Part shown: positions 3,916 through 23,855 of the stretch, piece by piece | Layout: each line of letters starts with the position of its first letter | Numbering within the stretch: the first letter of the stretch is position 1 | Virus genome (UHGV): UHGV-0206901 | Reading direction: 5' to 3' (one strand) | From: a virus | Length of the DNA stretch: 26,230 nucleotides | Notes under the pieces: generated by a model | The model's input: the letters and a program-made list of their open reading frames with translations, nothing else | What the model was told of the DNA's origin: nothing | The model's database searches: none | Translations under genes and position numbers: made by a program

Positions 3916-4229
3916 GAGCCAGACTGAGACCGCCAGGAGATGCCGTTCGCTGCGATGCCTGCGGATGTGCATTTGTTCCGGAAACACTGACGCAGCGTGA
4001 GGGTGAGATCGAATACAGCTTCTTCCGCTGCGACTATTGCGGCAAGGCGTATCTCGTATCCGTTACGGATGCAGACCTCTGCAAGGATATCCGCAGATAC
4101 AGAACGCTTGCGGAAAAGCACAAGATCAAGCCCCTGAGTGAACAGTCGCTCCGCGAGATGGCTGCGCTGAAAGAGCAGAACTTAAAACGAGCCGCAAAGC
4201 TGCGGCAGTTGTACTATGTGGAGGGATGA
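3912..4229 (+). CDS. Zinc-ribbon protein, function unknown
   Basis: 105-aa ORF whose ATG overlaps the nrdG stop; two CxxC pairs (CDACGC, CDYCGK); basic C-terminal tail. Confidence 0.5.
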   Translation: MRARLRPPGDAVRCDACGCAFVPETLTQREGEIEYSFFRCDYCGKAYLVSVTDADLCKDIRRYRTLAEKHKIKPLSEQSLREMAALKEQNLKRAAKLRQLYYVEG

Positions 4230-4230
4230 G

Positions 4231-6310: not shown

Positions 6311-7082
6311 TGTGAAATGTGAGCTGTATCACGATAACTTCCAGAACTTCAAATCCTACTGCATCCCAAAAGCACAGCTCGTCATTGCTGACATTCCGTA
6401 CAACATCGGCGGCGACTTTTATGCCAGCCGTCCCGACTGGTATGTGAACGGTGACAATCAGAACGGTGAAAGCAGCAAAGCGCACAAGGCTGCATTCCAC
6501 ACGGATTACACCTTCAACATCGCTGAATACTTCGCCTTCTGTAACCGGCTGCTCAAAAAGGAGCCGTCCAAAGGTGAGAAGGATGCTCCCTGCATGATTG
6601 TATTCTGTGCCTTTCAGCAGATACCCGAGGTCATCCGGCAGGCGGAGAAATACGGCTTCAAGAAGTATCAGTTTTTGTGCTTTATGAAGAATTACAGTCC
6701 GCAGGTGCTGAAGGCGAACATGAGGATCGTGGGCGCAACGGAGTTTGCTCTGGTGCTGTATCGGGGAAAGCTGCCGAAGTTCCGCAATACCGATGCATAC
6801 GGCAAGAGGCACATGATCTTCGACCATTTTGACTGGATGCGGGACGGCAAGGATATCCCGAAGATACATCCTTCGCAGAAGCCGGTAAATCTCCTGAAAC
6901 GGCTGATCGGGATATTTACCGACGAGGGTGATGTGGTCATCGATCCCTGCGCCGGTTCCGGCTCAACGCTGCGTGCGGCGAGGGAGCTTGGCAGACACAG
7001 CTACGGCTTTGAAGTCAGCCGAGATTTTTACAACAAAGCCTGTGAGCAGATGCTTGGGGAGGTGCAGGATGACAAAGTATGA
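6303..7082 (+). CDS. DNA amino-methyltransferase (N6-adenine or N4-cytosine), divergent motif IV
   Basis: ATG at 6303 is 6 nt after GGAGG; IADIPYN (variant DPPY-type motif IV) near the N-terminus and DPCAGSGST (motif I, AdoMet binding) near the C-terminus. Confidence 0.7.
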   Translation: MADVKCELYHDNFQNFKSYCIPKAQLVIADIPYNIGGDFYASRPDWYVNGDNQNGESSKAHKAAFHTDYTFNIAEYFAFCNRLLKKEPSKGEKDAPCMIVFCAFQQIPEVIRQAEKYGFKKYQFLCFMKNYSPQVLKANMRIVGATEFALVLYRGKLPKFRNTDAYGKRHMIFDHFDWMRDGKDIPKIHPSQKPVNLLKRLIGIFTDEGDVVIDPCAGSGSTLRAARELGRHSYGFEVSRDFYNKACEQMLGEVQDDKV

Positions 7083-7284
7083 GTGCGCCATTGTGACGGC
7101 ATACACAGATATCTCGATGCTGTGCGGCGATGATCTGAAATATCTGTATGACTATCTTTCCGGCTTTATCGGCAGACCGGTGTATACACACGAGATTCCT
7201 GCGGTGGCTGCGGCTTACAGAGACAAGATCAGAGAGGACTTCCTCGATCTGTGCAGGAACGCAAAGGAGGCGGATGATGGATAA
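7069..7284 (+). CDS. Small hypothetical protein
   Basis: 71-aa ORF starting at an internal ATG of ORF 6928-7284, overlapping the upstream methyltransferase stop; no recognisable motif; the 11-nt overlap with the next gene suggests translational coupling. Confidence 0.4.
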   Translation: MTKYECAIVTAYTDISMLCGDDLKYLYDYLSGFIGRPVYTHEIPAVAAAYRDKIREDFLDLCRNAKEADDG

Positions 7285-9487
7285 GAAACACTTGACCCTC
7301 GGCAGCCTGTTTGACGGCTCGGGGGGGTTTCCGCTTGGCGGCATCCTCGCAGGGATCGAGCCGAAGTGGAGCAGCGAAATTGAACCTTTTCCGGTGCTTG
7401 TCACGCACAAGCGACTGCCTGGGGTGAAGCACTACGGCGATGTATCCACACTGAACGGTGCAGAGCTTCCGCCGGTGGATATTATCACCTTCGGCAGCCC
7501 TTGTCAGGATCTGTCCATTGCTGGAAAGCGTGCCGGAATCCATGACGGTGATCGGTCGAACCTGTTCTTTCAGGCGATCCGTATCATCAAAGAAATGAGG
7601 GATGCAACAAATGGACAATACCCGCGATACTGCGTCTGGGAGAATGTCCCCGGCGCTTTCTCCTCCCACGGAGGAGACGATTTCAAAGCTGTCCTCGAAG
7701 CAGTTATCGGAATTAAAGAAGAAGGGATCGAGGTGCCTGCGCCTGAAAATCACAGATGGGCAAAATCAGACGTATATCTGGGAGACGGATGGAGCGTGGC
7801 TTACCGAGTTTTCGATGCTCAATACTGGGGTGTCCCCCAACGCAGAGCAAGAATCTACCTTGTCGCAGATTTTGCTGGCGGAAGTGCCGGAGAAATACTA
7901 TTTAAGTCCGAAGGCGTGTCTGGGTATACTCCGCAGGGCTTCCGTTCGTGGCAAGGAACTGCCGGAGGTGCTGAAGAAAGCACTGGAGCGACAGGCTGGC
8001 GGTCTGACGCTGGAGGTGGAACCCTCTGCGTAAACTGTCAGGGCACGGCAGGTGTCGGTATCACAGAAGATAAGGCACTGGCACTTGTCGCACAGGATCA
8101 CGGGAATCATCCAGCCGTTCTTGCCGCAGGTTTTTCCACAGAGCATAGTGCAAAAGCACGAAGCATCGGCTACGAAGAGGAAGTATCTCCTACACTGAGA
8201 GCTGGTGTTGTTCCGGCGGCAATGGAGCTTCAAAGCTATCCCGTTGAAAATCATCCTGCGGATTCGAGAGTCAGGGTGCGTGAGGACGGAAAGTGTCAGG
8301 GGCTTACAGGCAGAATGGGAACAGGCGGCGGAAACGTACCGCTTGTAGCAGAACCGATTACGCTAAAAATCCGCAGTGGTGGCGGAAATGGTGGTAAGGG
8401 CGCTATCTGGCAAACAGATAAATCCGCAACTCTTGCAACCAATAATGACCAGACGCTTTTTCAGCCGGAGGTCAAGGCTTTCGGTGTATGCAGCAAGCAC
8501 TCCAATGCGATGATGTCCGACAATCCGCACAGCGGATTCTATGAGGCGACCACAAGCAGAACGCTCGACCAAAGTGGTGGAAATTCTGTGACATCGAATC
8601 AGGGCGGCATCTGCGTGGTAGCACCTGCGCCTGAAACCTTCGATGTGCGTTTCACATCAGACGGTACAAAAAACGCTCGTGGGCATTGTTACCCGACAGA
8701 CATTTCCCGATGCCTTGATACGAGCGAGGCGAACCCGGACAGCAATCACGGAGGAGTTGCGGTGGTGGCTCTCGAACCGGGGGCGGCATCCCGTATCGGC
8801 GGTCATGTATACAGTGACGGCAAAAGCGGCACGCTCCGTGCAAATGCCGGAGACAATCAGCAGGCTGTTGTGGTAGCCGAGAAGGAGACCTATGCACTGC
8901 AAGGCTCGATGATCGGTCGCGCCGATCAGAACGGACCGCAGGGTGATGGTATCAATGAAGATGTGTGCTTTACGCTGAACACAACAGACAGGCATGCTGT
9001 CGCAGCACCGGATGCCGATCACTACAGCACAAGCAAGAATTCTCACCACACAGTCGCCGCACATGAACAGGCAAACACGCTGGTCGCATCCGACTGGAAG
9101 GATCCTCCGCTTGTGAACGACCTTCCGAATGACGAGCCGGTATATATCGTTCGTCGTCTGACTCCGGTGGAGTGCGCCAGATTGCAGGGATTCCCCGACT
9201 GGTGGTGTGCCGACCTTGCGATTCCCGATCCGACCGATGAGGAGATCACCTTCTGGATGGAAGTATGGGAAACTTGGAGACAGATCACAAATCCCAAGGG
9301 AAAGCCGAAAACGGAAAAGCAGATCCGCAAATGGTTGGCTGATCCGTACACGGACAGTGCCGAGTACAAGTTATGGGGCAACGGTGTCTCAGAGCCCGTT
9401 GTGTTCTTCGTGCTATCCGGCATTGCCTGGGCGGCACAGAATTCTGAAACTAATGCAGCAAATTGTGAACATTCTGATACTATGTAA
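7274..9487 (+). CDS. DNA cytosine-5 methyltransferase with an exceptionally long variable (target-recognition) region, possibly multispecific
   Basis: ATG at 7274 preceded by AAGGAGG (7264-7270); motif I LFDGSGG, motif IV GSPCQDLS, motif VI ENVPG, motif VIII QRRARIYLV, C-terminal RRLTPVECARLQGFPDWW; about 480 aa lie between motifs VIII and IX. Confidence 0.9.
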   Translation: MMDKKHLTLGSLFDGSGGFPLGGILAGIEPKWSSEIEPFPVLVTHKRLPGVKHYGDVSTLNGAELPPVDIITFGSPCQDLSIAGKRAGIHDGDRSNLFFQAIRIIKEMRDATNGQYPRYCVWENVPGAFSSHGGDDFKAVLEAVIGIKEEGIEVPAPENHRWAKSDVYLGDGWSVAYRVFDAQYWGVPQRRARIYLVADFAGGSAGEILFKSEGVSGYTPQGFRSWQGTAGGAEESTGATGWRSDAGGGTLCVNCQGTAGVGITEDKALALVAQDHGNHPAVLAAGFSTEHSAKARSIGYEEEVSPTLRAGVVPAAMELQSYPVENHPADSRVRVREDGKCQGLTGRMGTGGGNVPLVAEPITLKIRSGGGNGGKGAIWQTDKSATLATNNDQTLFQPEVKAFGVCSKHSNAMMSDNPHSGFYEATTSRTLDQSGGNSVTSNQGGICVVAPAPETFDVRFTSDGTKNARGHCYPTDISRCLDTSEANPDSNHGGVAVVALEPGAASRIGGHVYSDGKSGTLRANAGDNQQAVVVAEKETYALQGSMIGRADQNGPQGDGINEDVCFTLNTTDRHAVAAPDADHYSTSKNSHHTVAAHEQANTLVASDWKDPPLVNDLPNDEPVYIVRRLTPVECARLQGFPDWWCADLAIPDPTDEEITFWMEVWETWRQITNPKGKPKTEKQIRKWLADPYTDSAEYKLWGNGVSEPVVFFVLSGIAWAAQNSETNAANCEHSDTM

Positions 9488-9593: not shown

Positions 9594-9649
9594 GTGACTA
9601 CCGTAAGGGAAAACCGAGCGGAATCAAAAACGAAACGGAGGATTCACAT

Positions 9650-10771
9650 ATGAAAACTTATGCAATGATCATTGGAAACCGCAAGGAACTCACAAAGAGA
9701 ATCGAGGCACTCACCGGAGAGCGCAGCGTATACACCTTCATGCCGAGATGCGCCTATGAGATCGGGGCATTCGCAGTCGAGAAGGACGGCACACTTACGG
9801 CACAGGACGATGCCAACCAGAGCGTGATCGACACCCTGAGAGCCGAGGGTATGATCGGTGATGAGATCATCGCAGAGAGCATCGAGGCAGTCGAGCCGGA
9901 GCAGACCGATGAGACCGCAGAGCCGGAACAGCCTGCACCGCCCGTAAGCACCGATGAATGGGACGATGATGAGGATGACGACGATGAGAACAGCGTCGAG
10001 GGCGAGAATGCGGAAGCGGAAGAGCCGGAGGAGTCCGAAGAAAATGCCGATAAGTCGGAGCCTGCCGCAGAGCCAGAAGCCGCACCTCCTGCGACCGAGG
10101 ATGCCTGGGATGATGAACCGGAGGATGAACCCGGCGACGAGCCGGAAGAAACCACCGAGCTTCCTGAACCGCTGACCGCAGAGATCAGCTTCCCGCTGAG
10201 CCATCACACGGTGCAGAGCCTTACGAACCTCATCTGCATGATCCACTCCCGCGGCGCACTTCTCAGCAAGGCGACCGGCGGAGAATTCTTCGCAGACAAG
10301 AGCCTCGCCGATGCGATCCTCGATGACAAGACCTTCCGCAGCATCCACGAGCTTATCGCCTACATCAGAGTATGGGAGGAAACGAATCCCGAACTGAAGG
10401 GCATCCGTTTCGCCGATGACAAGCTGATCTTTGACGGCTTCGGTGCAGCACAGGATGCCGAGACGGTGCAGACCTTCACCAAGCTCGCCGCAGCCATGAA
10501 CAGGATGGCGATCACGCAGAAACGTGTGCAAGCAAAGGATGTCGATGACAGCAACGAAAAGTACGCACTCCGCATCTGGCTGATCCGCCTTGGGCTGAAC
10601 GGTGCTGACTTCAAGGCTGACCGCAAGCGCCTCATGACTCCGCTTTCCGGACACACCGCATTCCGCAACGATGAGGAGCGTGAACGCTGGGAGGCAAAGC
10701 AAAAGGCAAAGCGTGATGCTGCCAGAACCGAACTGACCGAGGAGGATGAAAACGATGCAGTTTCCGAATGA
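9650..10771 (+). CDS. Amidoligase-like paralog, probably catalytically degenerate, with a ~95-aa acidic low-complexity insertion
   Basis: 373 aa; the C-terminal half aligns by eye with the downstream amidoligase-like ORF (TVQSLTNL vs TPQTLRNL; KYALRIWLIRLGLNGADF vs KFAMRTWLMRMGFIGDEF); the GVEIE and HCH motifs of the paralog are absent; residues ~80-172 are D/E/P-rich. Confidence 0.55.
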   Translation: MKTYAMIIGNRKELTKRIEALTGERSVYTFMPRCAYEIGAFAVEKDGTLTAQDDANQSVIDTLRAEGMIGDEIIAESIEAVEPEQTDETAEPEQPAPPVSTDEWDDDEDDDDENSVEGENAEAEEPEESEENADKSEPAAEPEAAPPATEDAWDDEPEDEPGDEPEETTELPEPLTAEISFPLSHHTVQSLTNLICMIHSRGALLSKATGGEFFADKSLADAILDDKTFRSIHELIAYIRVWEETNPELKGIRFADDKLIFDGFGAAQDAETVQTFTKLAAAMNRMAITQKRVQAKDVDDSNEKYALRIWLIRLGLNGADFKADRKRLMTPLSGHTAFRNDEERERWEAKQKAKRDAARTELTEEDENDAVSE

Positions 10772-11003
10772 ACGACAGCTCAAAGCCTTGCGGGAGCGTT
10801 ATCCCGAAGGCACCCTTATCCGACTGAAGCACATGGACGATCCCTACGCACCAGTGCCGCCCGGAACAATTGGCGAGGTTCAGATGGTCGATGACGGCGG
10901 CAACATACACATGGTCTGGCAGAACGGCAGAACGCTTTCTCTTATAGAAGGCGTGGATGATTTCCAGGTCATTTCTGACCGCAATGGGGGCCCCGGAAAA
11001 TAA
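10755..11003 (+). CDS. Small hypothetical protein
   Basis: ATG at 10755 is 8 nt after GGAGGA and overlaps the upstream gene end; 82 aa, glycine-rich beta-like sequence (GTIGEVQMVDDGGNIHMVWQNG). Confidence 0.5.
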   Translation: MQFPNERQLKALRERYPEGTLIRLKHMDDPYAPVPPGTIGEVQMVDDGGNIHMVWQNGRTLSLIEGVDDFQVISDRNGGPGK

Positions 11004-11200: not shown

Positions 11201-12145
11201 ATGACTGAGAAAACCGCACAGCAGATCAACAGAATGAAGGAGCAGACCATCGGGGTTGAGATCGAGATGAACAACATCACCCGCAAGGCTGCCGCAAAGC
11301 TCGCCGCTGACTTCTTCGGCACGAACCGCTACGAGGACACGGCCTGCCGCAACGGCTACTACACTTGGAGCGCATGGGATGCACAGGGGCGCGAGTGGAA
11401 ATTCCAGCGGGACGTGAGCATCGCAGGCTCCGACAGCGAAAAGTGCGAACTGGTCACACCGATCCTGCACTACGCAGACATCGAAACCCTGCAGGAGCTT
11501 GTGAGAAAGCTCAGGAAGGCAGGAGCGCGCAGTGATTACACGCGGGGATGTGGAGTCCACTGCCATATTGGAGCCCAGGGACACACACCGCAGACCTTGA
11601 GAAACCTCGCAAACCTGATGGCAAGCCACGAAACCCTGATCGCCGAGGCAATCAGAGTAGACCAGAGCAGAATGCGCCGCTACTGCAGAACAGTTGACCC
11701 GAGATTCCTTGAACAGCTCAACCGCAAAAAGCCCACCACGATGGCACAGCTTGCGGACATCTGGTACGGCGCACAGGGCTGCGAATACGGCAGAACCCAC
11801 CACTACAACGACAGCCGCTATCACATGCTCAACCTCCACGCTACCTTCACCAAAGGCACGGTCGAGTTCAGACTTTTCCAGTTCGCACCGCCCTCAAACG
11901 GCAAGCAGAACGGGCTCCACGCAGGCAAGCTCAAGAGCTACATTCAGCTCTGCCTCGCAATGAGCCAGATGGCAAAGGACCTGCGGAGCGCCAGCCCCAA
12001 GGAGCAGCAGAAGGAAAACAAAAAGTTCGCCATGCGGACTTGGCTGATGAGAATGGGATTCATCGGGGATGAATTCGCAACGGCGAGAGAGGTCCTCACT
12101 GAGAACCTTACGGGCGACAACAGCTTCCGCTTCGGCAGATCTTAA
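11201..12145 (+). CDS. Putative amidoligase (glutamine-synthetase-like / gamma-glutamyl-cysteine-ligase-like ATP-dependent amide ligase family)
   Basis: 314 aa; N-terminal IGVEIEMNN strand with paired glutamates and a central GCGVHCHIG motif, both typical of Amidoligase_2-type enzymes as I recall them; own promoter cassette; followed by an AIG2-like gene. Confidence 0.65.
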   Translation: MTEKTAQQINRMKEQTIGVEIEMNNITRKAAAKLAADFFGTNRYEDTACRNGYYTWSAWDAQGREWKFQRDVSIAGSDSEKCELVTPILHYADIETLQELVRKLRKAGARSDYTRGCGVHCHIGAQGHTPQTLRNLANLMASHETLIAEAIRVDQSRMRRYCRTVDPRFLEQLNRKKPTTMAQLADIWYGAQGCEYGRTHHYNDSRYHMLNLHATFTKGTVEFRLFQFAPPSNGKQNGLHAGKLKSYIQLCLAMSQMAKDLRSASPKEQQKENKKFAMRTWLMRMGFIGDEFATAREVLTENLTGDNSFRFGRS

Positions 12146-12478: not shown

Positions 12479-12940
12479 ATGAACAAGAAAAAATACTACA
12501 TAGCCTACGGCAGCAACCTCAACATCCGCCAGATGCGATTCCGCTGCCCAGGCGCAAAGCCTATCGGCATCACGGTGATTCCCGACTACGAACTGCTCTA
12601 CAAGGGCAGCAAGACCGGCGCGTACCTGACCATAGAACCGAAGAAGAACGGCATCGTTCCGATTGCGGTATGGGAGGTCACCGCAGCAGACGAGAAGCGG
12701 CTGGATGCCTACGAGGGCTGCCCGACCTTCTACTACAAGAAGAACGTCTGCCTGCCGGTGAAGCTGGCAAGCGGCAAGACCAAGCGCCTGACAGCATTCG
12801 TCTACATCATGCACGAGGAGCGCAGCCTCGGAATTCCGTCGCTTGCCTACATCCGCACCTGCGAGGAAGGCTATCGCAACTTCGGATTTGATTTGAAGTA
12901 CCTTGACAGGGCATACATGAGAAGCACAAAGGAGGACTGA
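12479..12940 (+). CDS. AIG2 / gamma-glutamyl cyclotransferase (GGCT)-like protein
   Basis: 153 aa; N-terminal YIAYGSNLN matches the Y-x-A-Y-G-S-N-L/M hallmark of the GGCT/AIG2 fold; a candidate catalytic Glu lies in LDAYEGCP. Confidence 0.7.
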   Translation: MNKKKYYIAYGSNLNIRQMRFRCPGAKPIGITVIPDYELLYKGSKTGAYLTIEPKKNGIVPIAVWEVTAADEKRLDAYEGCPTFYYKKNVCLPVKLASGKTKRLTAFVYIMHEERSLGIPSLAYIRTCEEGYRNFGFDLKYLDRAYMRSTKED

Positions 12941-14463: not shown

Positions 14464-14847
14464 ATGAGTACGAATTCAAGAGTCGGAATCCTGCATCAGG
14501 ACGGCGCCACGGAGACAATCTACTGCCATTGGGACGGCTACCCCGAACACCAGATGCCCATCCTCACCGAGCATTATAACACCGCCGAGAAGGTCAAGGC
14601 ACTGCTTGCCCTTGGAGACATCAGCATCCTCGGCGAGCGCCTTGCTCCCGATGCGGATGAGCCGCACAGCTTTGAAAAGCCTGCCGATGGTGTGACGGTT
14701 GCTTACCACCGCGACCGCAAAGAGCCGATGCAGCCTGCGGTCACCCACAAGAGCGTTGTTTCCCTGATGAGCGATGACTGGGGCATTCCGTATTACTACC
14801 TTTTCGATGAGGAAAAAGGAGCATGGCTTCCGCCGACCGAGGACTGA
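14464..14847 (+). CDS. Hypothetical protein
   Basis: Internal ATG at 14464 is 9 nt after GGAGG; 127 aa; probably co-transcribed with the preceding gene (no promoter cassette in between, only a hairpin). Confidence 0.5.
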   Translation: MSTNSRVGILHQDGATETIYCHWDGYPEHQMPILTEHYNTAEKVKALLALGDISILGERLAPDADEPHSFEKPADGVTVAYHRDRKEPMQPAVTHKSVVSLMSDDWGIPYYYLFDEEKGAWLPPTED

Positions 14848-15276
14848 TAGGTTCAGCCCTGCGGGGCTGACTTGCCCCACGTTGTCCTTTGTGAGGTTTT
14901 CCTGCGATAAGCTTGCCCCTGCGGAAAGCCGCCTCACACGGCGCGTTTGTGTGCTGACCGCAGTCATCGCAAACCTGTCGGCCACGGGAACATGGACGGA
15001 GCGAGAAGTGATGGAAACGCTGCTGGATGTCTTTGAACCGAAGGAGCTTGAACAGCTCGGCTACGGCGACTGCGTGAACGCATACTTGGAAGAGTACGGC
15101 GGATGGCGACGACACACGCACCACGTTGCCTCGTGTGGGGCGGTGCCGGGGAGATGCGTACAGCTTGCCCCTGCGAAAAGCCGCCTTACACGGCGCGTTC
15201 TGGCGCGTCCTATACGATGTACAATTCCGCCCGACTTCCCGCCTCATGTTTGTCACATTTATTTTGCAGACAGACG

Positions 15277-15305
15277 TGGACTTTTCTGCGAAAAGACGGT
15301 AATAT
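15277..15305 (+). promoter_or_regulatory. Sigma-A-type promoter cassette 6 (TGGACT, 17 bp, TAATAT)
   Basis: Upstream TTTATTTTGCAGACAGACG; leader GTGACTACCGCAAGAGAAGCGGAATCAATCAAAAGGAG; ATG at 15353. Confidence 0.6.
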
Positions 15306-15352
15306 GTGACTACCGCAAGAGAAGCGGAATCAATCAAAAGGAGCGAATCTAC

Positions 15353-15706
15353 ATGAAAATTCTGGTATGCGAACCCGGCAAGCACCCCTACGTCAAGGAC
15401 ATCGAGTCGGGGCTGGAGAACCTTCAGCACGAGGTGGACGGACTGATTCAGGCCCTCTACCCATTTTCCGAAGAGGCGGCTGTTGTGTGCAACGAAGAAG
15501 GGCTGTTCCGCGATGACCTCGAATGGAACAGAACGGTCGATCCCTATGGTCCGATCAAGGGAACATTCTTCATTTGTGGGCTCGGCTTTGAAGATTTTAC
15601 AGGACTGACCGATGAACAGATCGAAAAGTACACTAAGCTCTTCTGGCCTCCTGAGCTTTTCATCCCGACACCGAACGGCATGGTGGTGCTTCACATTGTG
15701 GAATGA
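15353..15706 (+). CDS. Hypothetical protein
   Basis: 117 aa, starting at the ATG placed like the other cassette-driven genes; the longer ORF-track frame (14774-15706) reads through repeat and promoter sequence and is probably not all coding. Confidence 0.55.
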   Translation: MKILVCEPGKHPYVKDIESGLENLQHEVDGLIQALYPFSEEAAVVCNEEGLFRDDLEWNRTVDPYGPIKGTFFICGLGFEDFTGLTDEQIEKYTKLFWPPELFIPTPNGMVVLHIVE

Positions 15707-15809
15707 CCGCAACAGGGGCAGGGCTTCGGCTCTGCTCCGCACCATTCCCCGGTCATAATGTACACAACTGAACGCCGAAAAATTCAGAAATGATCGTGAT
15801 TACTCACGC

Positions 15810-15838
15810 TTGATAATGTAGGCAAGAAGAGTTATACT
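15810..15838 (+). promoter_or_regulatory. Sigma-A-type promoter cassette 7 (TTGATA, 17 bp, TATACT)
   Basis: Leader GTGTACAACGGAAGGGCGGAAAGCCCAGCCGAAAACGAAAATGCGGAGG; ATG at 15896. Confidence 0.6.
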
Positions 15839-15895
15839 GTGTACAACGGAAGGGCGGAAAGCCCAGCCGAAAACGAAAATGCGGAGGTACACACC

Positions 15896-16075
15896 ATGAA
15901 AACGAAGCAGGAACTGATCGAGAAGGCAAAGAAAGAGTGGGGCGAGACTTGGAACGAGGGCATGATCGAGTACGATGCCGAGTACAACGAGTACATCGTC
16001 TGGGTAGGCAAGCCGGACATCTACAAAGCCTTCTTCGATGCCGACACCCTCAGATGCATTGGCACGAAGTGCTGA
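15896..16075 (+). CDS. Small hypothetical protein
   Basis: 59 aa; GGAGG 7 nt upstream; lysine/glutamate-rich. Confidence 0.45.
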   Translation: MKTKQELIEKAKKEWGETWNEGMIEYDAEYNEYIVWVGKPDIYKAFFDADTLRCIGTKC

Positions 16076-16130
16076 GAACAACCGCCGCCCTTCGGGGCGG
16101 CACAACACCAATACTAAGGAGGACATTTAC

Positions 16131-16403
16131 ATGAGCGAGAACACAGAAAAGCGCGATGCAGCCGAAGAACTAGAACTTACCGATGCACAGGCAGACCGCA
16201 ACGATGACATCTACGAGGCAGCTTTTGAATTCTGCAAGGTGCTGACCGAGAACCCCGACCTCGAATGGGACATGGCGTTCCTCGGTGAGATCGCCGACCT
16301 TGCCGCTGGCATCATGACCGAGCAGGGACACAAGGTGCGGTTCCCCAGTGTGGTCACCGAGCAGGACGGCACGCAGTACATTGAAGAATACTACGGCGGC
16401 TGA
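16131..16403 (+). CDS. Small acidic hypothetical protein
   Basis: 90 aa; AAGGAGG 7 nt upstream; preceded by the GCCGCCC ttcg GGGCGGC hairpin (16083-16100); ends ...YIEEYYGG. Confidence 0.5.
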   Translation: MSENTEKRDAAEELELTDAQADRNDDIYEAAFEFCKVLTENPDLEWDMAFLGEIADLAAGIMTEQGHKVRFPSVVTEQDGTQYIEEYYGG

Positions 16404-16604
16404 TCGGCAAAACGGAGCAGTCCTTCTGCGGAGGGGCTGTTCCACGCCACGTTCGCTTGTGTGGGGGGCTTACGGCTTTCTGCGGATATCTTGCCCCGCG
16501 ATAAAAGCCGCCCACACGGCGCATTTGTGTGCCTCCTGCGGCAAGGCATAATATGTACAACAACCGACAAAAAATCGCCTTGCACATTCTGGTAGTTTAG
16601 CCGC

Positions 16605-17044: not shown

Positions 17045-17074
17045 GCAGATTTTTTGAGAAAAGGAGTGATGCGG

Positions 17075-17548
17075 ATGGCTCAGAGAGGCAGAAAACCGAC
17101 GCCGACAGCAATCAAGGAACTGGAAGGCAATCCGGGCAAGCGTCCGCTGAATGATGCAGAGCCGAAGCCGGAACGCAAGGCACCGCCCTGTCCGAAATGG
17201 CTGGAGCCCGAAGCAAAAAAGGAATGGCGCAGGCTGTCAAAGCAACTGGAGCAGATTGGTGTGCTGACCGAGGTCGATCAGGCGGCATTCGCATCCTACT
17301 GTCAGGCATACGCACGATGGAAAGAAGCCGAGGAATTCATGACACAGCACGGCACGATCGTGAAAACAAAATCAGGTTACTGGCAGCAGGTGCCGCAGGT
17401 ATCCATTGCACAGACCTATCTGAAGATCATGAATAAGATCGCAGAACAGTTCGGTCTGACTCCTGCCGCAAGAAGCAGGATCACCGCAGGTGCGGATATG
17501 AAGGACGCTGCCGTTGACGATATGGATGAACTTCTCGGAGGTGACTGA
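17075..17548 (+). CDS. terS: Terminase small subunit
   Basis: AAGGAG 8 nt upstream of the ATG at 17075; 157 aa; basic N-terminus (RGRKPTPTAIKELEGNPGKRP) and overall pattern typical of P27-family small terminases; sits directly upstream of, and overlaps, the large terminase. Confidence 0.8.
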   Translation: MAQRGRKPTPTAIKELEGNPGKRPLNDAEPKPERKAPPCPKWLEPEAKKEWRRLSKQLEQIGVLTEVDQAAFASYCQAYARWKEAEEFMTQHGTIVKTKSGYWQQVPQVSIAQTYLKIMNKIAEQFGLTPAARSRITAGADMKDAAVDDMDELLGGD

Positions 17549-20214
17549 TGGCGAGAACGGCAAAGGCAAGAGAAAGACCTGCCAACTATCCGAAACTGAA
17601 GGATTATAAACCGACACGCTTTATGCTGCCGGAATCGCACTACGATGCGGCAAAGGCTGACCGAGCTGTGCGGTTCATCGAGAATCTCTGCCATACCAAA
17701 GGACGCTGGGCAGGAAAGCCGTTCTGGTTGCTGCCGTGGCAGGAACAGATCATCCGGGATATTTTCGGCATCGTCAAAGAGGATGATACCCGCCAATTCC
17801 GCACAGCTTATGTCGAAATTCCAAAGAAAAATGGGAAGCAGCTTGCACTGGATACACCGATCCCGACTCCGCAGGGATTCACCAATATGGGAGATCTGAA
17901 GGTCGGAGATACAGTATTCGATGAAAACGGCATTCCGTGCCATGTGGTTGCGAAAAGTCCTGTGGATGATACAGAGCAAGCCTACAAGCTGACCTTCAAG
18001 GACGGCAGCTCGATCATCGCCGGAGAACGGCATCTGTGGAACTGTCAGTATATTTACGGCAAACGCAAGGATGTTCTCTGGACGACCGGCGAGATCTATC
18101 GCAGGACTTCAGAATACAGACGGCGATTCTCAGACCGACCGCAGTCAAAGCGGGATTCTCTGATCCGAATTCCGGTGTGCGGTGTCCTTCAGACAGAAGC
18201 GGCAGTTTTACCGATTGATCCGTATCTGTACGGCTACTGGCTCGGAAACGGTAATGTGACCATGCCGGAGATCACTGTTCGGACGGAGGATGTCGAGGAT
18301 ATCATCTCGAATATTCCGTATAAGGTACACAACCGTTATCCGCAGAAATGCGGCGGCAGTGAGATCATAAAGTACAATGAACTGAAAGCAGTACTACTTG
18401 ACAGCTTCCGTGAAAAGAAGATCCGACCAGAATATCTGAGGGCATCCGCAGAGCAGAGATGGGCATTACTGCAAGGGCTTATGGATTCGGACGGCTGTAT
18501 CGGTGAACGCAAAGGGCAAAGTGTGTATGTCACAACGCTGCGAGAGCTGGCGCTTTCCGTCAGAGAACTGCTGTGGTCGCTCGGTATCAAAAATGCAGTG
18601 AAATGTGAGCCTTCTACTCGGCATGGGTGGCCGACTGGAGAGATTTTGTATATCGTCCGGTTTACTACCTTTGACGATCAGCCGACATCAAGACTGAAAC
18701 GAAAGTACACACGCACACGGGCGCGGGTGAAAGAAACTCGCTCCTGTTTTCATTATTTACTGGACATTCAGCCTGTGGATCATCCTGTGAAAATGCAGTG
18801 TATTCAGGTGGATAGTCCTAGCCACCAATATCTTGCTGGAACATCGTTTGTGCCTACGCACAACAGTGAGCTTGCAGCCGCAATTGCGCTGTATCTGCTC
18901 TACGCTGACAACGAGCCATCCGCCGAGGTCTACGGTGCTGCCGCCGACCGACAGCAGGCATCCATTGTATTCGATGTCGCCAAAAGAATGGTTGAGATGA
19001 CACTGGCACTTCTGAAACGCTCAAAAATCATGGCGGCGACAAAGCGTCTGGTGAATTACAGCAATGTCGGTTTCTATCAGGTGCTTTCGGCGGAGGTCGG
19101 AACAAAACACGGTCTGAATGTATCTGGGCTTGTGCTTGACGAGCTTCATGTTCAGCCGAACCGTAATCTTGTGGACGTTCTCACAAAGGGATCCGGTGAT
19201 GCCCGTACTCAGCCGCTGTACTTCCTGATCACCACAGCCGGCACTGACCGAAACAGCATCTGCTATGAATACCACACCAAGGCAAAAGACATCCTCGAAG
19301 GGCGGCGTATCGATCCGTCATTCTATCCTGTCATTTACGGTCTGGATGACGGCGACGACTGGAATTCAGAGGAATCGTGGTACAAGGCAAATCCGTCTCT
19401 CGAATACACAATTACCATAGACCGTGTGCGGGATGCCCATCGTGAAGCACTGACAAATCCTGCGGAAGAAAATGTATTCCGTCAGCTTCGTCTTGATCAG
19501 TGGGTTGGCAGTGCGGTTGCATGGGTGCCGGAGCATATCTACGACAAAGGCAATATACCAATCAATCCGGAGTCTCTGTACGGACGCGAGTGCTATGCAG
19601 GACTGGACCTTTCCAGTACATCTGATATCACGGCATTTGTTCTGGTATTCCCACCGTTGTATGAGGGTGATAAATACATCGTTGTACCCCACTTCTGGCT
19701 GCCGAGGGAAACACTTGACCTGCGTGTACGGCGAGACCATGTTCCCTACGATGTATGGGAGCGCATGGGGCTATTTCATATCACCGAGGGCAATGTGGTG
19801 GACTACAACTTCGTGCGGAAAACGATCAATGAGCTGCACACGATGTATAACATCAAGGAAATTGCAGCAGACCGCTGGAATGCCACACAGCTTATCACCG
19901 ACCTGCAGGGTGACGGTTTTACCGTTGTCCCGATGGGCATGGGCTTCAAGGATATGTCGCCACCGATGAAGGAGCTTTACAAGCTGCTGCTTGAGGGCAA
20001 GTTTATCCATGGCGGAAATCCTGTCCTGCGATGGATGGCAGGAAATGTGGTCGCTGAAATTGACGCGGCGGAAAATATCAAGCCGTCCAAGAAAAAGTCT
20101 ACAGAGAAAATTGACGGCATCGTAGCATGGATCATGGCACTTGACCGCTGCATCCGCCACGAAATGCAGGGCAGTGTCTATGACGAACCCGGCCACGATC
20201 TTGTGGTCATCTGA
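17548..20214 (+). CDS. terL: Terminase large subunit, interrupted by an in-frame intein at the Walker A (P-loop) site
   Basis: 888-aa ORF; N-extein ends ...EIPKKNGK and C-extein begins SELAAAIALYLLYADNEPSAEVYGAAADRQQ, which together rebuild a canonical PKKNGKS P-loop; C-terminal nuclease-domain-like region; followed by the portal gene. Confidence 0.92.
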   Translation: MARTAKARERPANYPKLKDYKPTRFMLPESHYDAAKADRAVRFIENLCHTKGRWAGKPFWLLPWQEQIIRDIFGIVKEDDTRQFRTAYVEIPKKNGKQLALDTPIPTPQGFTNMGDLKVGDTVFDENGIPCHVVAKSPVDDTEQAYKLTFKDGSSIIAGERHLWNCQYIYGKRKDVLWTTGEIYRRTSEYRRRFSDRPQSKRDSLIRIPVCGVLQTEAAVLPIDPYLYGYWLGNGNVTMPEITVRTEDVEDIISNIPYKVHNRYPQKCGGSEIIKYNELKAVLLDSFREKKIRPEYLRASAEQRWALLQGLMDSDGCIGERKGQSVYVTTLRELALSVRELLWSLGIKNAVKCEPSTRHGWPTGEILYIVRFTTFDDQPTSRLKRKYTRTRARVKETRSCFHYLLDIQPVDHPVKMQCIQVDSPSHQYLAGTSFVPTHNSELAAAIALYLLYADNEPSAEVYGAAADRQQASIVFDVAKRMVEMTLALLKRSKIMAATKRLVNYSNVGFYQVLSAEVGTKHGLNVSGLVLDELHVQPNRNLVDVLTKGSGDARTQPLYFLITTAGTDRNSICYEYHTKAKDILEGRRIDPSFYPVIYGLDDGDDWNSEESWYKANPSLEYTITIDRVRDAHREALTNPAEENVFRQLRLDQWVGSAVAWVPEHIYDKGNIPINPESLYGRECYAGLDLSSTSDITAFVLVFPPLYEGDKYIVVPHFWLPRETLDLRVRRDHVPYDVWERMGLFHITEGNVVDYNFVRKTINELHTMYNIKEIAADRWNATQLITDLQGDGFTVVPMGMGFKDMSPPMKELYKLLLEGKFIHGGNPVLRWMAGNVVAEIDAAENIKPSKKKSTEKIDGIVAWIMALDRCIRHEMQGSVYDEPGHDLVVI
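17839..18864 (+). mobile_element. Intein (~342 aa) with an embedded double-motif LAGLIDADG homing endonuclease, inside terL
   Basis: Block A-like LALDTPIPT...GDLKVGDTVF; block B GERHLW; two LAGLIDADG motifs (LYGYWLGNGNV and LLQGLMDSDGCI); terminal ...FVPTHN followed by Ser +1. Confidence 0.8.
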
Positions 20215-20229
20215 CAGGAGGTAATGTTT

Positions 20230-21612
20230 ATGAGCTTTTTAAGCTGGCTCGGCATCAGCAAGCCGAGAGATGCGCCGATGCTGCCTGATATTCAGGACAA
20301 TGTCCGTGATTCTGGAAATCTGTTCGTATTCGGCATGACGCACAGCGGTGAACGTGTCGATGAGCGCACGGCGATGCAGATCGTGACTGTTTACGCCTGT
20401 GTTCGACTGCTCTCCAACACCATCGCAGGACTGCCGCTGCACCTATACAGATACACCGGCAAGGGCGATGATAAGGAATTAGCCATTGACCATCCGCTGT
20501 ACAAAATACTCTATCGGCAGCCGAATCCCGAAATGAGTTCATTCTCGTTCTGGGAAGCACTGATGTGCCACCTTTTACTATGGGGCAACGCCTATGCACA
20601 GATTGTCCGGGACGGCAAAAACGGCATCCTCGGTCTCTATCCCCTGCTTCCCGAAAATGTCGAGATCGACCGTGATCCGAAATCCGGCGACCTGATCTAC
20701 ACTTACCACGCCTACACCGACGAAAAGCCCGGTGAGCATGACAAGGATATTATCTTCCGCAGGGATGAAATCTTACACATCCCCGGTCTGGGATTCAATG
20801 GACTGGTCGGTTTCTCACCGATAGCGATGATGAAAAATGCACTCGGTGCGGTCATGGCAGTAGAGCGATACGGCAGCGCCTTCTTCAAAAACGGAGCGCA
20901 GCCTGCCGGAGTTCTCGAACATCCGGGCGTGCTGAAGGATCCGCAGAAGATCCGCGACAACTGGACAAAGGCATACGGCGGCGCACGGAACGCACACCGC
21001 ATCGCAGTCCTCGAAGAAGGTATGCAGTATAAGCCAATCTCCCTGCCGCCGGAGGATTCGCAGTTTCTGTCCACAAGAGAATTCGATGTGGAGGAAATCT
21101 GCCGGATGTTTCAGGTTCCGCCGCATCTGGTACAAGACCTCAAACGCAGTACCTTCAATAACATCGAGCATCAGGGTATTGCATTTGTGCAGTATTCTCT
21201 TATGCCGTGGATCATTCGCATCGAAAAGGGCATCATGAAAGACCTTCTTCTGGAGGAAGAACAGAATGTATATTTCCCGAAATTCAATGTGGACGGTCTG
21301 ATGCGCGGCGACTACCAGAGCCGAATGAACGCCTACGCTATCGGTGTCGGCAACGGCTTTATGTCGCCCAATGATGTGCGCCGTCTTGAAAATATGGACT
21401 TGATCCCTGACGATCAGGGCGGCAACGACTACTACCTGAACGGCTCGTATAACAAGCTGGAGGATGCAGGTGCGGCATATGCTCTGAATCAGCCGCAGGA
21501 ACAGCCGGATACCGAGGAACAGGATGAGCCGGACGAGAATCCGGGCGAAGAAACCGATGACAGATTCCTGCGAAAAAAGCGCAGGAAGAAATACAAGAAT
21601 GGGGGTATGTAA
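20230..21612 (+). CDS. Portal protein (HK97-like family)
   Basis: AGGAGG 8 nt upstream of the ATG at 20230; ~460 aa; position immediately after terL; sequence features typical of HK97-type portals; acidic C-terminus. Confidence 0.88.
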   Translation: MSFLSWLGISKPRDAPMLPDIQDNVRDSGNLFVFGMTHSGERVDERTAMQIVTVYACVRLLSNTIAGLPLHLYRYTGKGDDKELAIDHPLYKILYRQPNPEMSSFSFWEALMCHLLLWGNAYAQIVRDGKNGILGLYPLLPENVEIDRDPKSGDLIYTYHAYTDEKPGEHDKDIIFRRDEILHIPGLGFNGLVGFSPIAMMKNALGAVMAVERYGSAFFKNGAQPAGVLEHPGVLKDPQKIRDNWTKAYGGARNAHRIAVLEEGMQYKPISLPPEDSQFLSTREFDVEEICRMFQVPPHLVQDLKRSTFNNIEHQGIAFVQYSLMPWIIRIEKGIMKDLLLEEEQNVYFPKFNVDGLMRGDYQSRMNAYAIGVGNGFMSPNDVRRLENMDLIPDDQGGNDYYLNGSYNKLEDAGAAYALNQPQEQPDTEEQDEPDENPGEETDDRFLRKKRRKKYKNGGM

Positions 21613-22545
21613 ATGGAAAAGTTCTGGAATTGGATCCACGATGACAGCAGCGGCAGAGTTCTTCGTCTCGAAGGTCCTATCGACTCGGAGAGCTTCTGGG
21701 GTGATGAAATTACGCCGCAATCTTTCCGCGATGAACTGTATGCCGAGGAGGGTGACATTACACTTTGGCTGAATAGTCCAGGCGGCAATGTGTTCGCAGC
21801 AGCAGAAATTTACACGATGATACGTGATTATCCGCACAGGGTAACGATAAAAATCGCAAGCATTGCAGCATCGGCGGCGAGCGTGATTGCTATGGCAGGA
21901 AATACTGTGCAGATGTCTCCGACCGCACTCCTGTTCGTGCATGATCCGTCCACAATTGCGATGGGAAACGCCAAGGACATGGAAAAAGCCATCGCAACAC
22001 TGAATGAGGTCAAAGAGAGCATCATCAACGCATATGCCGCAAAAACCGGACTCAGCAGAAACCGCATCAGCAAGCTCATGTCGGACGAGACATGGATCAA
22101 TGCGAAAAAGGCAGTTGAGCTGGGCTTTGCAGATGAGATTCTGTTCGATGAAAAGTCCAAACCGGACAAGAAGGATGAGCCTGACGATCCGGAGGAGGAT
22201 AAGCCCGAAAAGCCCGACGAGGAAGGCGGTGACGAGGACGGGGATGAAAAGAAGGAAACAGAAAAGAAGCCGTTCAAACTAGAATCCGGCGATGCCCTTT
22301 GGCAGTACAGTACCCGTATCATGGGGCAGACCATCTTGGGAAAGATCACCGCTTCCGCAGCACACGAAGGCACAGAGCCGCCCGATGACGGCAAGGCAGA
22401 TGATGCCCAGAAACCTTCCGAGGAATGGCTGACCGCACCGACAGTTACAGTGCCGGATATGCCTGTGATCGGCATGGACGGTAAAACCGCAGACGGCGCA
22501 ATGCCGTATGAAATTCTGAAACAGCAGCTTGCATTTTTGAGATAA
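21613..22545 (+). CDS. ClpP-family prohead (head maturation) protease with a C-terminal extension
   Basis: LWLNSPGGNVFAAAEIY and IASIAASAASVIAMAG (Ser nucleophile region) plus LLFVHDPS (His) match the ClpP/S14 fold; positioned between portal and capsid; ~130-aa acidic C-terminal extension. Confidence 0.85.
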   Translation: MEKFWNWIHDDSSGRVLRLEGPIDSESFWGDEITPQSFRDELYAEEGDITLWLNSPGGNVFAAAEIYTMIRDYPHRVTIKIASIAASAASVIAMAGNTVQMSPTALLFVHDPSTIAMGNAKDMEKAIATLNEVKESIINAYAAKTGLSRNRISKLMSDETWINAKKAVELGFADEILFDEKSKPDKKDEPDDPEEDKPEKPDEEGGDEDGDEKKETEKKPFKLESGDALWQYSTRIMGQTILGKITASAAHEGTEPPDDGKADDAQKPSEEWLTAPTVTVPDMPVIGMDGKTADGAMPYEILKQQLAFLR

Positions 22546-22601: not shown

Positions 22602-23855
22602 ATGAGCAAGATCATGGAACTTCGCAGTAAACGTAATACCCTGTGGGAGCAGACAAAGGCATTCCTCGAAAAGCACCGTGGTGAGAACGATCTCGTGGAG
22701 GCATCCGCAGTTGAGCAGTACAACAAAATGGCCGGTGAGGTGCAGGCTCTCGGTGCAGAGATCGAGCGTCTGGAACAGCAGGCAGCCGTGGATGCGGCAC
22801 TTTCCGCACCGACCTCCAAGCCCGTCACCAACGCTCCCGGCGCAAAGAACACGCCGCCCACTAACCCGACCGCAACGGACGAGTACAAGTGTGCGTTCTG
22901 GGATATGATCCGCAACAAGGGCGATCAGCTTGTAGTCCGCAACGCACTCTCTGTCGGTGAGGACACCGAGGGCGGCTACACTGTGCCCGACGAGTTCGAG
23001 CGCCGTCTGATTCAGGCGCTTGAGGAAAACAACATCTTCCGCCAGATGGCAACGGTCATCAAGACCAATTCCGGTACCCGCAAGATCCCGATCGCCAATG
23101 ACACGATGGAAGCACAGTGGATCGATGAGGGTGAGGAGATCCCGGAGACCGATACTCGTTTCGGTCAGACCACGCTCTCCGCATACAAGCTCGGCACAAT
23201 GATCAAGATCAGCAACGAGCTTCTGCACGATTCCGCCTTCGACCTCGCAAGCTATATCGCTGCACGTTTCGGTGTGGCAATGGGCAACGCCGAGGAAAGA
23301 GCGTTCTTCACCGGTGACGGTGACAAGAAGCCCCTCGGTATTCTCGATGAGACCGGCGGCGCTGAGCTTGGTGTCACTGCGGCATCTCAGACTGCGATCA
23401 CTTTCGATGAGATCTTCAACCTCTACTACAGCCTGAAGTCTCCCTACCGCCGCAACGCACAGTTCGTCTGCAACGAGACCATTCTCCTTCAGCTCATGAA
23501 GCTGAAAGACAAGAACGACAACTACCTCTGGAAGCCGAGCCTTGATATCGCAAAGCCGGATACACTTCTCGGCAGACCGATCCGCACCTCTTCCTTCATG
23601 CCCGCAATCGCCAAGGGTGAGCGTGTGCTGCTCTTCGGCGACATGAAGAACTACTGGGTGGCTGACCGTCAGAACCGCACCTTCCGCCGTCTGAATGAGC
23701 TGTATGCCCGCACCGATCAGGTCGGCTTCCTCACCACGCAGCGTGTGGACGGCCGTCTGATCCTGCCGGAATCCGTCAAGGTTCTCAAGATGGCTGGAAC
23801 AAAGGCTACTACGACTGGCGGTAACACCGGCGGCGGTGCAGGCGGCAACGGCTGA
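22602..23855 (+). CDS. Major capsid protein, HK97-like fold with N-terminal delta/scaffold-like coiled coil
   Basis: 417 aa; GGAG 7 nt upstream; coiled-coil-like N-terminus (EVQALGAEIERLEQQAAVDAA); capsid-family-like core; position after the protease. Confidence 0.9.
   Translation: MSKIMELRSKRNTLWEQTKAFLEKHRGENDLVEASAVEQYNKMAGEVQALGAEIERLEQQAAVDAALSAPTSKPVTNAPGAKNTPPTNPTATDEYKCAFWDMIRNKGDQLVVRNALSVGEDTEGGYTVPDEFERRLIQALEENNIFRQMATVIKTNSGTRKIPIANDTMEAQWIDEGEEIPETDTRFGQTTLSAYKLGTMIKISNELLHDSAFDLASYIAARFGVAMGNAEERAFFTGDGDKKPLGILDETGGAELGVTAASQTAITFDEIFNLYYSLKSPYRRNAQFVCNETILLQLMKLKDKNDNYLWKPSLDIAKPDTLLGRPIRTSSFMPAIAKGERVLLFGDMKNYWVADRQNRTFRRLNELYARTDQVGFLTTQRVDGRLILPESVKVLKMAGTKATTTGGNTGGGAGGNG

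Follow-up and report, generated by a model that had tools for sequence, protein, structure and literature searches.

A probable class 3 intein with a LAGLIDADG endonuclease domain in the P-loop of a phage large terminase subunit

The gene for the large terminase subunit (TerL) in UHGV virus genome UHGV-0206901 raises the question of how a DNA-packaging ATPase can be produced when its P-loop is interrupted. In the 26,230-nucleotide stretch of viral DNA analyzed here (the window), the terL reading frame is unbroken across positions 17548-20214 (+ strand) despite the presence, at 17839-18864, of an in-frame insert of 1026 nt, corresponding to 342 sense codons. The insert starts with QLALDTPIPT and ends with FVPTHN. 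It is preceded by EIPKKNGK and followed by SELAAAIALY, so that the Walker A motif is cut between Lys97 and Ser440 (precursor numbering). An earlier inspection of the DNA letters, hereafter the sequence-only reading, had described the continuous frame, the extent of the insert and the split Walker A motif, and translation reproduces all three exactly. As argued below, the insert is very probably a bifunctional class 3 intein, composed of a HINT splicing domain and a LAGLIDADG endonuclease domain, that separates Lys from Ser in the Walker A motif of a temperate phage's TerL and behaves as a mobile homing element. That it splices, that it uses Cys321 of the intein to do so and that its endonuclease is active are what we infer from sequence comparisons.

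Does the insert belong to TerL? Empty-site homologues were found by searching with the in silico spliced protein, and were then aligned. Two TerL alleles of 546 amino acids (P0004 and P0009; 94-95% identical) read contiguously EIPKKNGK/SELAAAIALY (slashes mark splice junctions or their equivalents throughout), with no insert, and place the junction exactly at K97/S440. The TerL of Lactonifactor longoviformis (P0087, 541 amino acids) is also contiguous at K/S. The DNA of L002, an intein-free locus, has ...AATGGAAAG/TCTGAGCTT... across the junction, where the window reads ...AATGGGAAG/CAG...(1026 nt)...AAC/AGTGAGCTT...; the empty-site sequence from L002 or L030 is GAAATACCCAAGAAAAATGGAAAG/TCTGAGCTTGCGGCAGCG. 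The Lys/Ser codons are AAG/TCT in intein-free alleles and AAG/CAG...AAC/AGT in the window. Lys(-1) and Asn342, the last residue of the insert, are different, as are Gln1 and Ser+1, which leaves no ambiguity about the junction in either protein or DNA. The near-identical alleles without insert therefore argue that it is not a native TerL domain. In addition, Pfam profiles recognize a complete TerL_nuclease in the unspliced protein but match TerL_ATPase (PF03354) only from profile position 37, whereas after in silico removal of the 342 residues TerL_ATPase is matched over positions 1-177 of 178 and TerL_nuclease over 4-286 of 286. That the ATPase profile becomes complete only after in silico splicing supports the integrity of the exteins.

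The features expected of inteins in general are all present, with blocks A, B, F and G (Table 1), a C-terminal Asn342 and a nucleophilic +1 residue, Ser440. So are all the sequence-level features by which class 3 inteins are defined (Tori et al., 2010; PMC2807308), namely Gln1, His65 and Trp67, Cys321, the Thr340-His341-Asn342 triplet and Ser+1. The sequence-only reading had noticed block A- and block B-like sequences, Gln as first residue and THN followed by Ser, each of which lies where it was predicted. It had also proposed a WCT signature (Trp, Cys and Thr), and alignment to the class 3 prototype and to the solved class 3 structures does place these residues at B:12, F:4 and G:5, respectively. 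The best matches of the intein in a phmmer search of the PDB are MsmDnaB1 (6bs8, E 6e-20) and MchDnaB1 (6rix and 6riy, E 2.9e-18 and 1e-17), followed by gp41-1. MsmDnaB1 and MchDnaB1 are class 3 inteins that splice experimentally and whose structures have been solved (PMC6195587, PMC7664689). In the alignment to these DnaB inteins, HLW falls on HQW, KMQCIQVDSPSH on VRCVEVDNPEH and VPTHN on VPTHN.

The comparison was extended to the class 3 prototype, "MP-Be DnaB". Gene product 11 of phage Bethlehem, translated from AY500153 (7260-9971), contains at residues 141-481 an intein of 341 amino acids with Pro1, His65, Trp67, Cys320 and Thr339-His340-Asn341, flanked by VSQDQ/ and /TKNTF. Because these residues and flanks match those in PMC2807308, the gp11 insert is the intein known as MP-Be DnaB; the class 3 prototype itself resides in a terminase-type gene, Bethlehem gp11/TerL. 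According to blastp, the window intein is 30% identical to it over the full length (E 1e-37), with all catalytic positions aligned; Cys321 in KMQCIQVD falls on Cys320 in VKCIGID.

A phmmer search against 1.84 billion cluster representatives returned 15,065 relatives at E<=1e-3, of which 2,619 reach E<=1e-30. The matches of the insert are far stronger than chance would produce. Conservation was evaluated on 146 sequences, the window intein plus 145 inteins taken with their flanks from the best 150 relatives. His at B:10, Cys at F:4 and Asn at G:7 are invariant in this set; Trp at B:12 and Thr at G:5 are each found in 143 sequences, and the His preceding the terminal Asn in 141. Residue 1 is variable (Ala 93, Pro 16, Leu 10, Gln 5, Met 5, Gly 5, Arg 4, Asp 3, Glu 2 and one Ser), and the +1 residue is Ser (77), Thr (63) or Cys (6). 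Gly occupies position -2 in 95 cases and Lys position -1 in 109, which makes the P-loop sequence GK/S or GK/T the favourite site of the family. The window insert is homologous to proven inteins hosted by unrelated proteins, among them DnaB, Cas4/RecB and further P-loop proteins, and tblastn finds the family in 608 deposited phage records.

Structure prediction points in the same direction. The AlphaFold2 model of the intein, built from an alignment of 46 sequences, has a predicted local distance difference test score (pLDDT) of 94.3 and a predicted template modelling score (pTM) of 0.92. In a Foldseek search of the PDB, the best whole-length matches are PI-SceI (1ef0, E 9e-19, query-normalized template modelling score, TMq, 0.71), TliVMA and PI-PfuI. 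The splicing-domain part matches the class 3 mini-inteins 6rix, 6riy and 6bs8 (target-normalized score, TMt, 0.80-0.85) and the central domain matches I-DmoI; hedgehog HINT domains match more weakly (E 2e-3 to 4e-3). Within the insert, Pfam recognizes LAGLIDADG_3 (PF14528; E 1.9e-7, 31.6 bits for a cut-off of 22.5). The sequence-only reading had noted neither this endonuclease domain nor the frequency of the element. Hence the insert is modelled as a HINT splicing domain in which a LAGLIDADG endonuclease domain is inserted.

How would such an element be removed? Since Gln1 is incapable of an N-S or N-O acyl shift, a class 3 route is predicted. A precursor of 101.5 kDa (computed mass) would be translated with the P-loop Lys and Ser 342 residues apart and the ATPase not assembled. 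Cys321 (F:4), belonging to a Cys-His65-Thr340 triad packed by Trp67, would attack the Lys97-Gln1 peptide bond, and the N-extein would be held on Cys321 as a block-F thioester branch before being passed to the side chain of Ser440, the +1 residue and serine of the P-loop. Cyclization of Asn342 would then free the 39-kDa intein, and an O-N shift would rebuild the Walker A sequence (...KKNGKSELAAA...) in a TerL of 62.3 kDa. These steps are those described for the class 3 pathway (PMC2807308, PMC5222942, PMC7664689). Because the P-loop Lys and Ser are split by 342 residues, the ATPase activity of TerL is predicted to depend on splicing, an argument already made for P-loop inteins of TerL and DnaB (PMC5050341, PMC6195587). 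A speculative possibility, weaker still than that of an asymmetric endonuclease considered below, is that a class 3 chemistry depending on Cys321 might place maturation of the terminase under redox control in strictly anaerobic hosts; such control has been described for MsmDnaB1.

The distribution of the element among related phages then raises the question of its mobility. Among the best 120 clusters (90% identity) of the TerL search, the P-loop site is empty in 53, occupied by a mini-intein (157 amino acids) in 36 and by a full intein in 29; residue 1 is always Q or E at the occupied sites, and one cluster carries a different intein elsewhere in TerL. Likewise, in 88 DNA loci from IMG/VR and metagenomes, full (334-348 amino acids), mini (157-159 amino acids) and empty alleles are found among exteins at least 87% identical. 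The mini-inteins of L003, L004, L023, L026-L028, L046, L085, L139 and L168 (146-159 amino acids) lie at the same site (17838/17839) and have near-identical blocks A, B, F and G (Q1, HLW, MQCIQV, THN/S), the endonuclease being deleted.

Identities of inteins and exteins are discordant. Compared with the window, L018 and L040 have exteins 54-55% identical and inteins 69% identical, while for L019-L024 the figures are 63-64% for the exteins and 53-54% for the inteins. Relative ages were estimated by counting synonymously differing codons among codons for identical amino acids in the intein and in the extein, with a Fisher test. L019 and L020 differ at 22% of such codons in the extein and at 0 of 331 in the intein (p 1e-27). 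The corresponding values are 20% and 5% for L008 and L009 (p 2e-11), and 31-33% and 15-16% for the window compared with L008 and L010 (p 1e-7 to 2e-8). Over 210 pairs, the intein is significantly younger than the extein (p<1e-4) in 10 and the reverse is observed in one. Fewer synonymous differences in the intein than in the extein argue for recent horizontal spread. In a comparison of the window with L003, a mini-intein allele, the N-extein is identical over the 110 nt beside the intein, the remaining extein being about 87% identical; this stretch resembles a co-conversion tract. Moreover, AGY encodes the +1 Ser in 28 of 32 occupied alleles but in only 13 of 53 empty ones, TCN being found in 40 of the 53, with the reservation that these alleles share ancestry and are not independent counts. 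AGY and TCN differ by two nucleotides (18865-18867, 85 alleles); the bias could result from co-conversion with the intein, from target-site preference or from immunity.

Selection was also considered. For the window compared with L008, the ratio of nonsynonymous to synonymous substitution rates (dN/dS) is 0.12 in the linker plus endonuclease and 0.02-0.04 for the splicing blocks; for the exteins it is 0.005-0.04. For the more distant L006 and L007, synonymous sites are saturated and no dN/dS can be given; the proportion of nonsynonymous differences (pN, 0.2) is well below the synonymous one (pS). The evidence for homing, that is the fewer synonymous differences in the intein, the discordant identities and the dN/dS of 0.12 in the endonuclease, is indirect and sequence-based. 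It indicates that the endonuclease domain has probably been maintained by selection and that the intein has recently spread horizontally, as expected for a homing intein. Occupied, endonuclease-deleted and empty alleles coexist, and the intein spreads between diverged terL alleles, in the manner of a mobile homing element.

A further intein was encountered in a TerL homologue of 900 amino acids, P0115, whose P-loop site is empty. It is of a different, class 1 type (Cys1...THN/T, with canonical GDG and DTDG LAGLIDADG motifs) and lies at SAEVG/TKHGL, about 10 residues upstream of Walker B, which corresponds to Gly518/Thr519 of the window protein (nt 19101/19102). This TerL lineage has, in that position, another site of intein insertion.

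The endonuclease domain deserves particular attention. Its two LAGLIDADG motifs, together with the fold matches to I-DmoI and to the endonuclease domain of PI-SceI, are those of a two-motif monomer with the alpha-beta-beta-alpha-beta-beta-alpha double-domain fold. In the general LAGLIDADG mechanism, the acidic residue that terminates each motif binds the catalytic metal (PMC3943268). Such a residue is present at the end of motif 2 (Asp218) but replaced by Asn137 at the end of motif 1. Among the 146 relatives, the motif 1 position is Asp in 130 and Asn in 12, the latter being scattered and including Acidovorax phage ACF1, and the motif 2 Asp is kept in 142. GNG is found in every full-length allele of the window clade (L006-L029, L040, L096-L122), down to 53% intein identity and across host classes. 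The Bethlehem intein has GDG at motif 1, and its endonuclease cuts DNA (PMC5050341). The literature was also searched for natural LAGLIDADG enzymes in which Asn occupies the catalytic position, with no useful result. The GNG/DSDG asymmetry could reflect a nickase, a tolerated variant or an inactive enzyme. Asn137 is clade-wide, yet the domain is under purifying selection and the intein has recently moved between diverged terL genes. The boldest reading would be that of a LAGLIDADG enzyme with a natural asymmetry, acting as a strand-specific nickase or as a one-and-a-half-site enzyme and nevertheless able to drive intein homing; we regard this as unlikely, if worth keeping in mind.

Some observations weigh against a bifunctional class 3 homing intein. 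With Asn137 in place of a metal-binding Asp, double-strand cleavage by the endonuclease is uncertain, and the spread of the intein could come partly from ordinary recombination between co-infecting phages. Position B:7 is Gly62 (18022-18024), where the relatives mostly have Asp (Asp 102 and Gly 19 of 146); work on MsmDnaB1 suggested a helper role for the B:7 Asp, which was proposed to help position the scissile bond (PMC6195587), while Ser62, at B:7 of the class 3 prototype, is dispensable (PMC2807308). Generic Pfam and NCBIfam searches (E limits 0.1 and 0.01) returned no splicing-domain family, and the assignment to class 3 therefore rests on direct alignment; inside the insert, these searches gave LAGLIDADG_3, alone above its cut-off, a weak Hom_end and a far-sub-threshold rSAM_Tes_intein. 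Finally, inteins bearing the signature could splice by a class 2 route, and only mutation of the Cys at F:4 separates the two possibilities (PMC5222942). In such a KlbA-like route, the N-terminal junction would be the direct target of Ser+1, with only a structural or assisting role left for Cys321, and class 2 inteins also have a non-nucleophilic residue 1. KlbA inteins, however, lie outside the WCT group and have Asp at F:4 (Asp147 in Mja KlbA; PMC2807308), whereas the window intein has the full WCT set plus Ser+1. Its homology to MP-Be, MsmDnaB1 and Mle DnaB, in which the F:4 Cys is essential (PMC2807308, PMC5222942, PMC6195587), extends over the full length, and this Cys is strictly conserved among the relatives. 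Splicing by the class 2 route is thus very unlikely.

The same deviations at Asn137 and Gly62 could be read as signs of decay, the intein being splicing-dead in a defective prophage and terL a pseudogene-like remnant giving no functional terminase; a precedent is the class 3-like intein of Arthrobacter FB24 Arth_1007, reported as a pseudogene (PMC3196547). Nevertheless, the catalytic splicing residues are all intact, strong purifying selection acts on the exteins as well as on the splicing blocks (dN/dS at most 0.04), and the reading frame is unbroken in dozens of alleles, down to 53% intein identity. Moreover, the same terL is found within complete morphogenesis modules of related loci, and identical or near-identical inteins in diverged exteins imply recent transfer. 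Decay is, in our opinion, highly improbable. As for a native accessory domain of the TerL lineage, for instance a fused nuclease kept in the mature protein, the continuous reading frame and the silence of the generic profile searches on splicing domains would be compatible with it. This possibility is effectively refuted by the 94-95% identical alleles that lack precisely the insert; the split of Walker A between Lys and Ser, the homology of the insert to proven inteins in unrelated host proteins and its predicted HINT plus LAGLIDADG fold also oppose it, and its probability appears close to negligible. A class 3 intein with a homing endonuclease domain thus remains by far the most probable identity of the insert.

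To what extent does this element resemble known systems? The Bethlehem MP-Be intein (PMC2807308; site TerL1-c in PMC5050341) is similar in size (341 compared with 342 amino acids), in the association of a class 3 domain with LAGLIDADG, in the positions of His65 and Trp67, in the block F Cys (320 compared with 321), in the Thr-His-Asn ending, in its large terminase host and in a hydroxyl-bearing +1 residue. It differs in its site, VSQDQ/P...N/TKNTF, which is not in the P-loop, in residue 1 (Pro instead of Gln), in the +1 residue (Thr instead of Ser), in B:7 (Ser instead of Gly) and in motif 1, GDG, with an endonuclease shown to cut. Furthermore, Bethlehem is an actinobacteriophage, whereas the window comes from a phage of Bacillota. 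TerL insertions between the Walker A Lys and Thr have been described as "TerL1-a", a "classic" P-loop insertion (PMC5050341), and the window site, PKKNGK/intein/S between the invariant Walker A Lys and the Ser next to it in a terminase_1-type TerL, is of this type.

Closer parallels in position are class 3-type inteins of the same family in the deposited genomes of Gordonia phage Zipp (SQVGK/L...PTHN/S), Vibrio phage 489E54-1 (RKYGK/A...PTHN/T), Acidovorax phage ACF1 (ARTGK/C...PTHN/T) and Rhodobacter phage RcTiptonus (GGGK/R...VTHN/T). All four share with the window the GK/intein/S or T site, 33-36% identity over the full length, HxW, THN/ and two LAGLIDADG motifs, and ACF1 also has GNG in motif 1. 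They differ by residue 1 (Leu, Ala, Cys and Arg, respectively, instead of Gln), by their TerL exteins and by their hosts, which are Actinobacteria or Proteobacteria. The intein of Gordonia phage APunk has class 3 status (bioRxiv 10.1101/2025.01.02.630785); its insertion site is deduced from tblastn coordinates matching those of Zipp, rather than read directly. The inteins DnaBi1 of Mycobacterium smegmatis (6bs8) and DnaB1 of M. chimaera (6rix/6riy) resemble the window intein by P-loop insertion before a +1 Ser and by the WCT/His set, but are mini-inteins without endonuclease, hosted by a replicative helicase, with Ala1 and with DxxH instead of GxxH. PI-SceI, TliVMA and PI-PfuI have the same two-domain architecture and homing lifestyle and are the best whole-length fold matches; on the other hand, they are of class 1 (Cys1, Asp at F:4), about 15% identical, located in other host proteins and equipped with both catalytic acidic residues.

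Class 3 inteins are abundant in actinobacteriophage terminases and Cas4/RecB nucleases (PMC5050341; bioRxiv 10.1101/2025.01.02.630785), with 287 reported (bioRxiv 10.1101/2025.01.02.630785), and both the splicing of TerL inteins and cutting by their endonucleases have been demonstrated (PMC5050341). Both sources bear out what the sequence-only reading had stated of class 3 inteins in phage terminases. A literature search for prophage inteins in the TerL P-loop returned nothing. Class 3 inteins in TerL, including at the P-loop Lys/Ser or Lys/Thr site, are already known and the present case will not surprise the specialist. What is distinctive here is the host range among Bacillota gut phages, a Gln or Glu as first residue, Gly at B:7 and an endonuclease motif that reads GNG.

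The carrier is a temperate phage of gut or rumen Bacillota, of the Oscillospiraceae/Ruminococcus type. The terL of the window has an identical counterpart on a metagenome scaffold from ENA (L005), and the L008 allele (94% extein identity) lies in a 2.66-Mb contig beside other phage genes, that is, in a prophage. Genome matches are all Bacillota or metagenome-assembled genomes (MAGs) from gut or rumen, the closest being an Oscillospiraceae MAG (94%), Candidatus Ruminococcus hominiciens (96%, partial) and Ruminococcus flavefaciens 007c (91%, empty site). Of 80 species-representative loci, 27 were resolved as occupied and 46 as empty. The same signature (Q/E1, HxW, MQCIQV, THN/SEL, WLGNG) is found at the occupied loci of Ruminococcus callidus MSK.21.81, Acidaminococcus sp. 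LBK-2, Pseudolactococcus insecticola and many MAGs. The locus of Megasphaera hutchinsoni also appears occupied, with residue 1 and HxW unread, its N-terminal end being mis-anchored. A megablast search of the window against deposited phages gave only short patches (terS and a hypothetical gene) in phages of Coprococcus, Ruminococcus and Christensenellales, and there is therefore no close deposited phage genome.

Current understanding of inteins is unchanged by this element. Its interest lies in that it is a clean, fully specified class 3 intein in the P-loop of a packaging ATPase outside the actinobacteriophages, where such inteins have mostly been catalogued, and in that the same element, beginning with Gln or Glu, occurs widely among prophages of Clostridia, Negativicutes and Bacilli. 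In public records, the 888-residue proteins are labelled simply "terminase large subunit". The natural polymorphism of full, mini and empty alleles in near-identical phages provides a system for studying the homing cycle, and these three states could also be used to ask whether splicing gates DNA packaging. As compact modules for class 3 splicing, the 157-residue mini-inteins may have practical value.

Table 1. Features of the terL region in the window
Feature	Position	Strand	Remarks
terS (Terminase_4)	17054..17548	+	directly upstream of terL
terL precursor	17548..20214	+	888 amino acids, about 101.5 kDa; N-extein, intein and C-extein; start codon overlaps the end of terS
N-extein	17548..17838	+	97 amino acids; ends in first part of Walker A, PKKNGK (17821-17838); K97 invariant in TerL alignment
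Intein (predicted class 3)	17839..18864	+	342 amino acids, 39.2 kDa; Gln1 to Asn342
Block A (QLALDTPIPTPQG)	17839..17877	+	residue 1 is Gln (CAG 17839-41), no N-terminal nucleophile; xLALDTPxPT motif conserved
Block B (GSSIIAGERHLWNC)	18004..18045	+	Gly62 (B:7), His65 (B:10) and Trp67 (B:12) in GERHLW
LAGLIDADG homing endonuclease domain (putative)	18151..18738 (approximate; intein residues about 105-300)	+	lies between the two halves of the splicing domain
LAGLIDADG motif 1 (YLYGYWLGNG)	18223..18252	+	Asn137 (AAC 18247-49) where the catalytic Asp is expected
LAGLIDADG motif 2 (LLQGLMDSDG)	18466..18495	+	canonical Asp218
Block F (KMQCIQVDSPSHQYLAG)	18790..18840	+	Cys321 (F:4; TGT 18799-801; KMQCIQV), predicted initiating nucleophile; Tyr331, conserved aromatic
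Block G and +1 residue (SFVPTHN/S)	18844..18867	+	Thr340 (G:5), His341, Asn342; Ser440 of TerL is +1 and P-loop Ser (AGT 18865-67)
C-extein	18865..20214	+	449 amino acids and stop; Walker A Ser first; Walker B LVLDE (19129-19143); nuclease domain
Portal gene	20224..21612	+	directly downstream of terL; Phage_portal in syntenic loci L005 and L008

Two minus-strand open reading frames (ORFs) over the intein (17416-18033 and 18336-18590) are without Pfam match and were treated as spurious, and an Rfam scan of the window gave no match. A suspected second insertion, in the capsid gene, was prompted by the 479-residue product of L005; it was dropped, since the window ORF encodes 417 amino acids, like the PF05065 capsid of L003. 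At this capsid position, L005 has a 479-residue ORF without Pfam match (15055-16494), while the window ORF (22602-23855) has the size of the PF05065 genes of L003 and L008. Because these ORFs differ, the window and L005 represent distinct genomes downstream of the protease gene.

Elsewhere in the window, an anaerobic ribonucleotide reductase, NrdD, is encoded at 1304-3451. Three DNA methyltransferases (MTases) form a cluster: a ParB_N plus N6_N4 MTase (4216-5514), an N6_N4 MTase (6297-7082) and a C5 MTase (7148-9487), the last one unusually long (779 amino acids). A gene resembling 3'-phosphoadenosine 5'-phosphosulfate (PAPS) reductase genes (5420-6310) sits among them. Two long ORFs of opposite strands, at 9650-10771 (+, 373 amino acids) and 9644-10783 (-, 379 amino acids), coincide almost perfectly; neither has a Pfam match, and in syntenic loci it is the + strand ORF that is called as a gene. 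Comparable long antisense ORFs overlie 14774-15706 and the portal gene (20815-21942, minus strand). Lastly, an Amidoligase_2 gene (11201-12145) is followed at 12479-12940 by the counterpart of a gene that encodes, in syntenic loci, a GGACT/AIG2-like (gamma-glutamyl cyclotransferase) protein of 153 amino acids. The latter assignment is by correspondence with these loci, and the pair is kept in all the related phage loci (L003, L005, L007 and L008).

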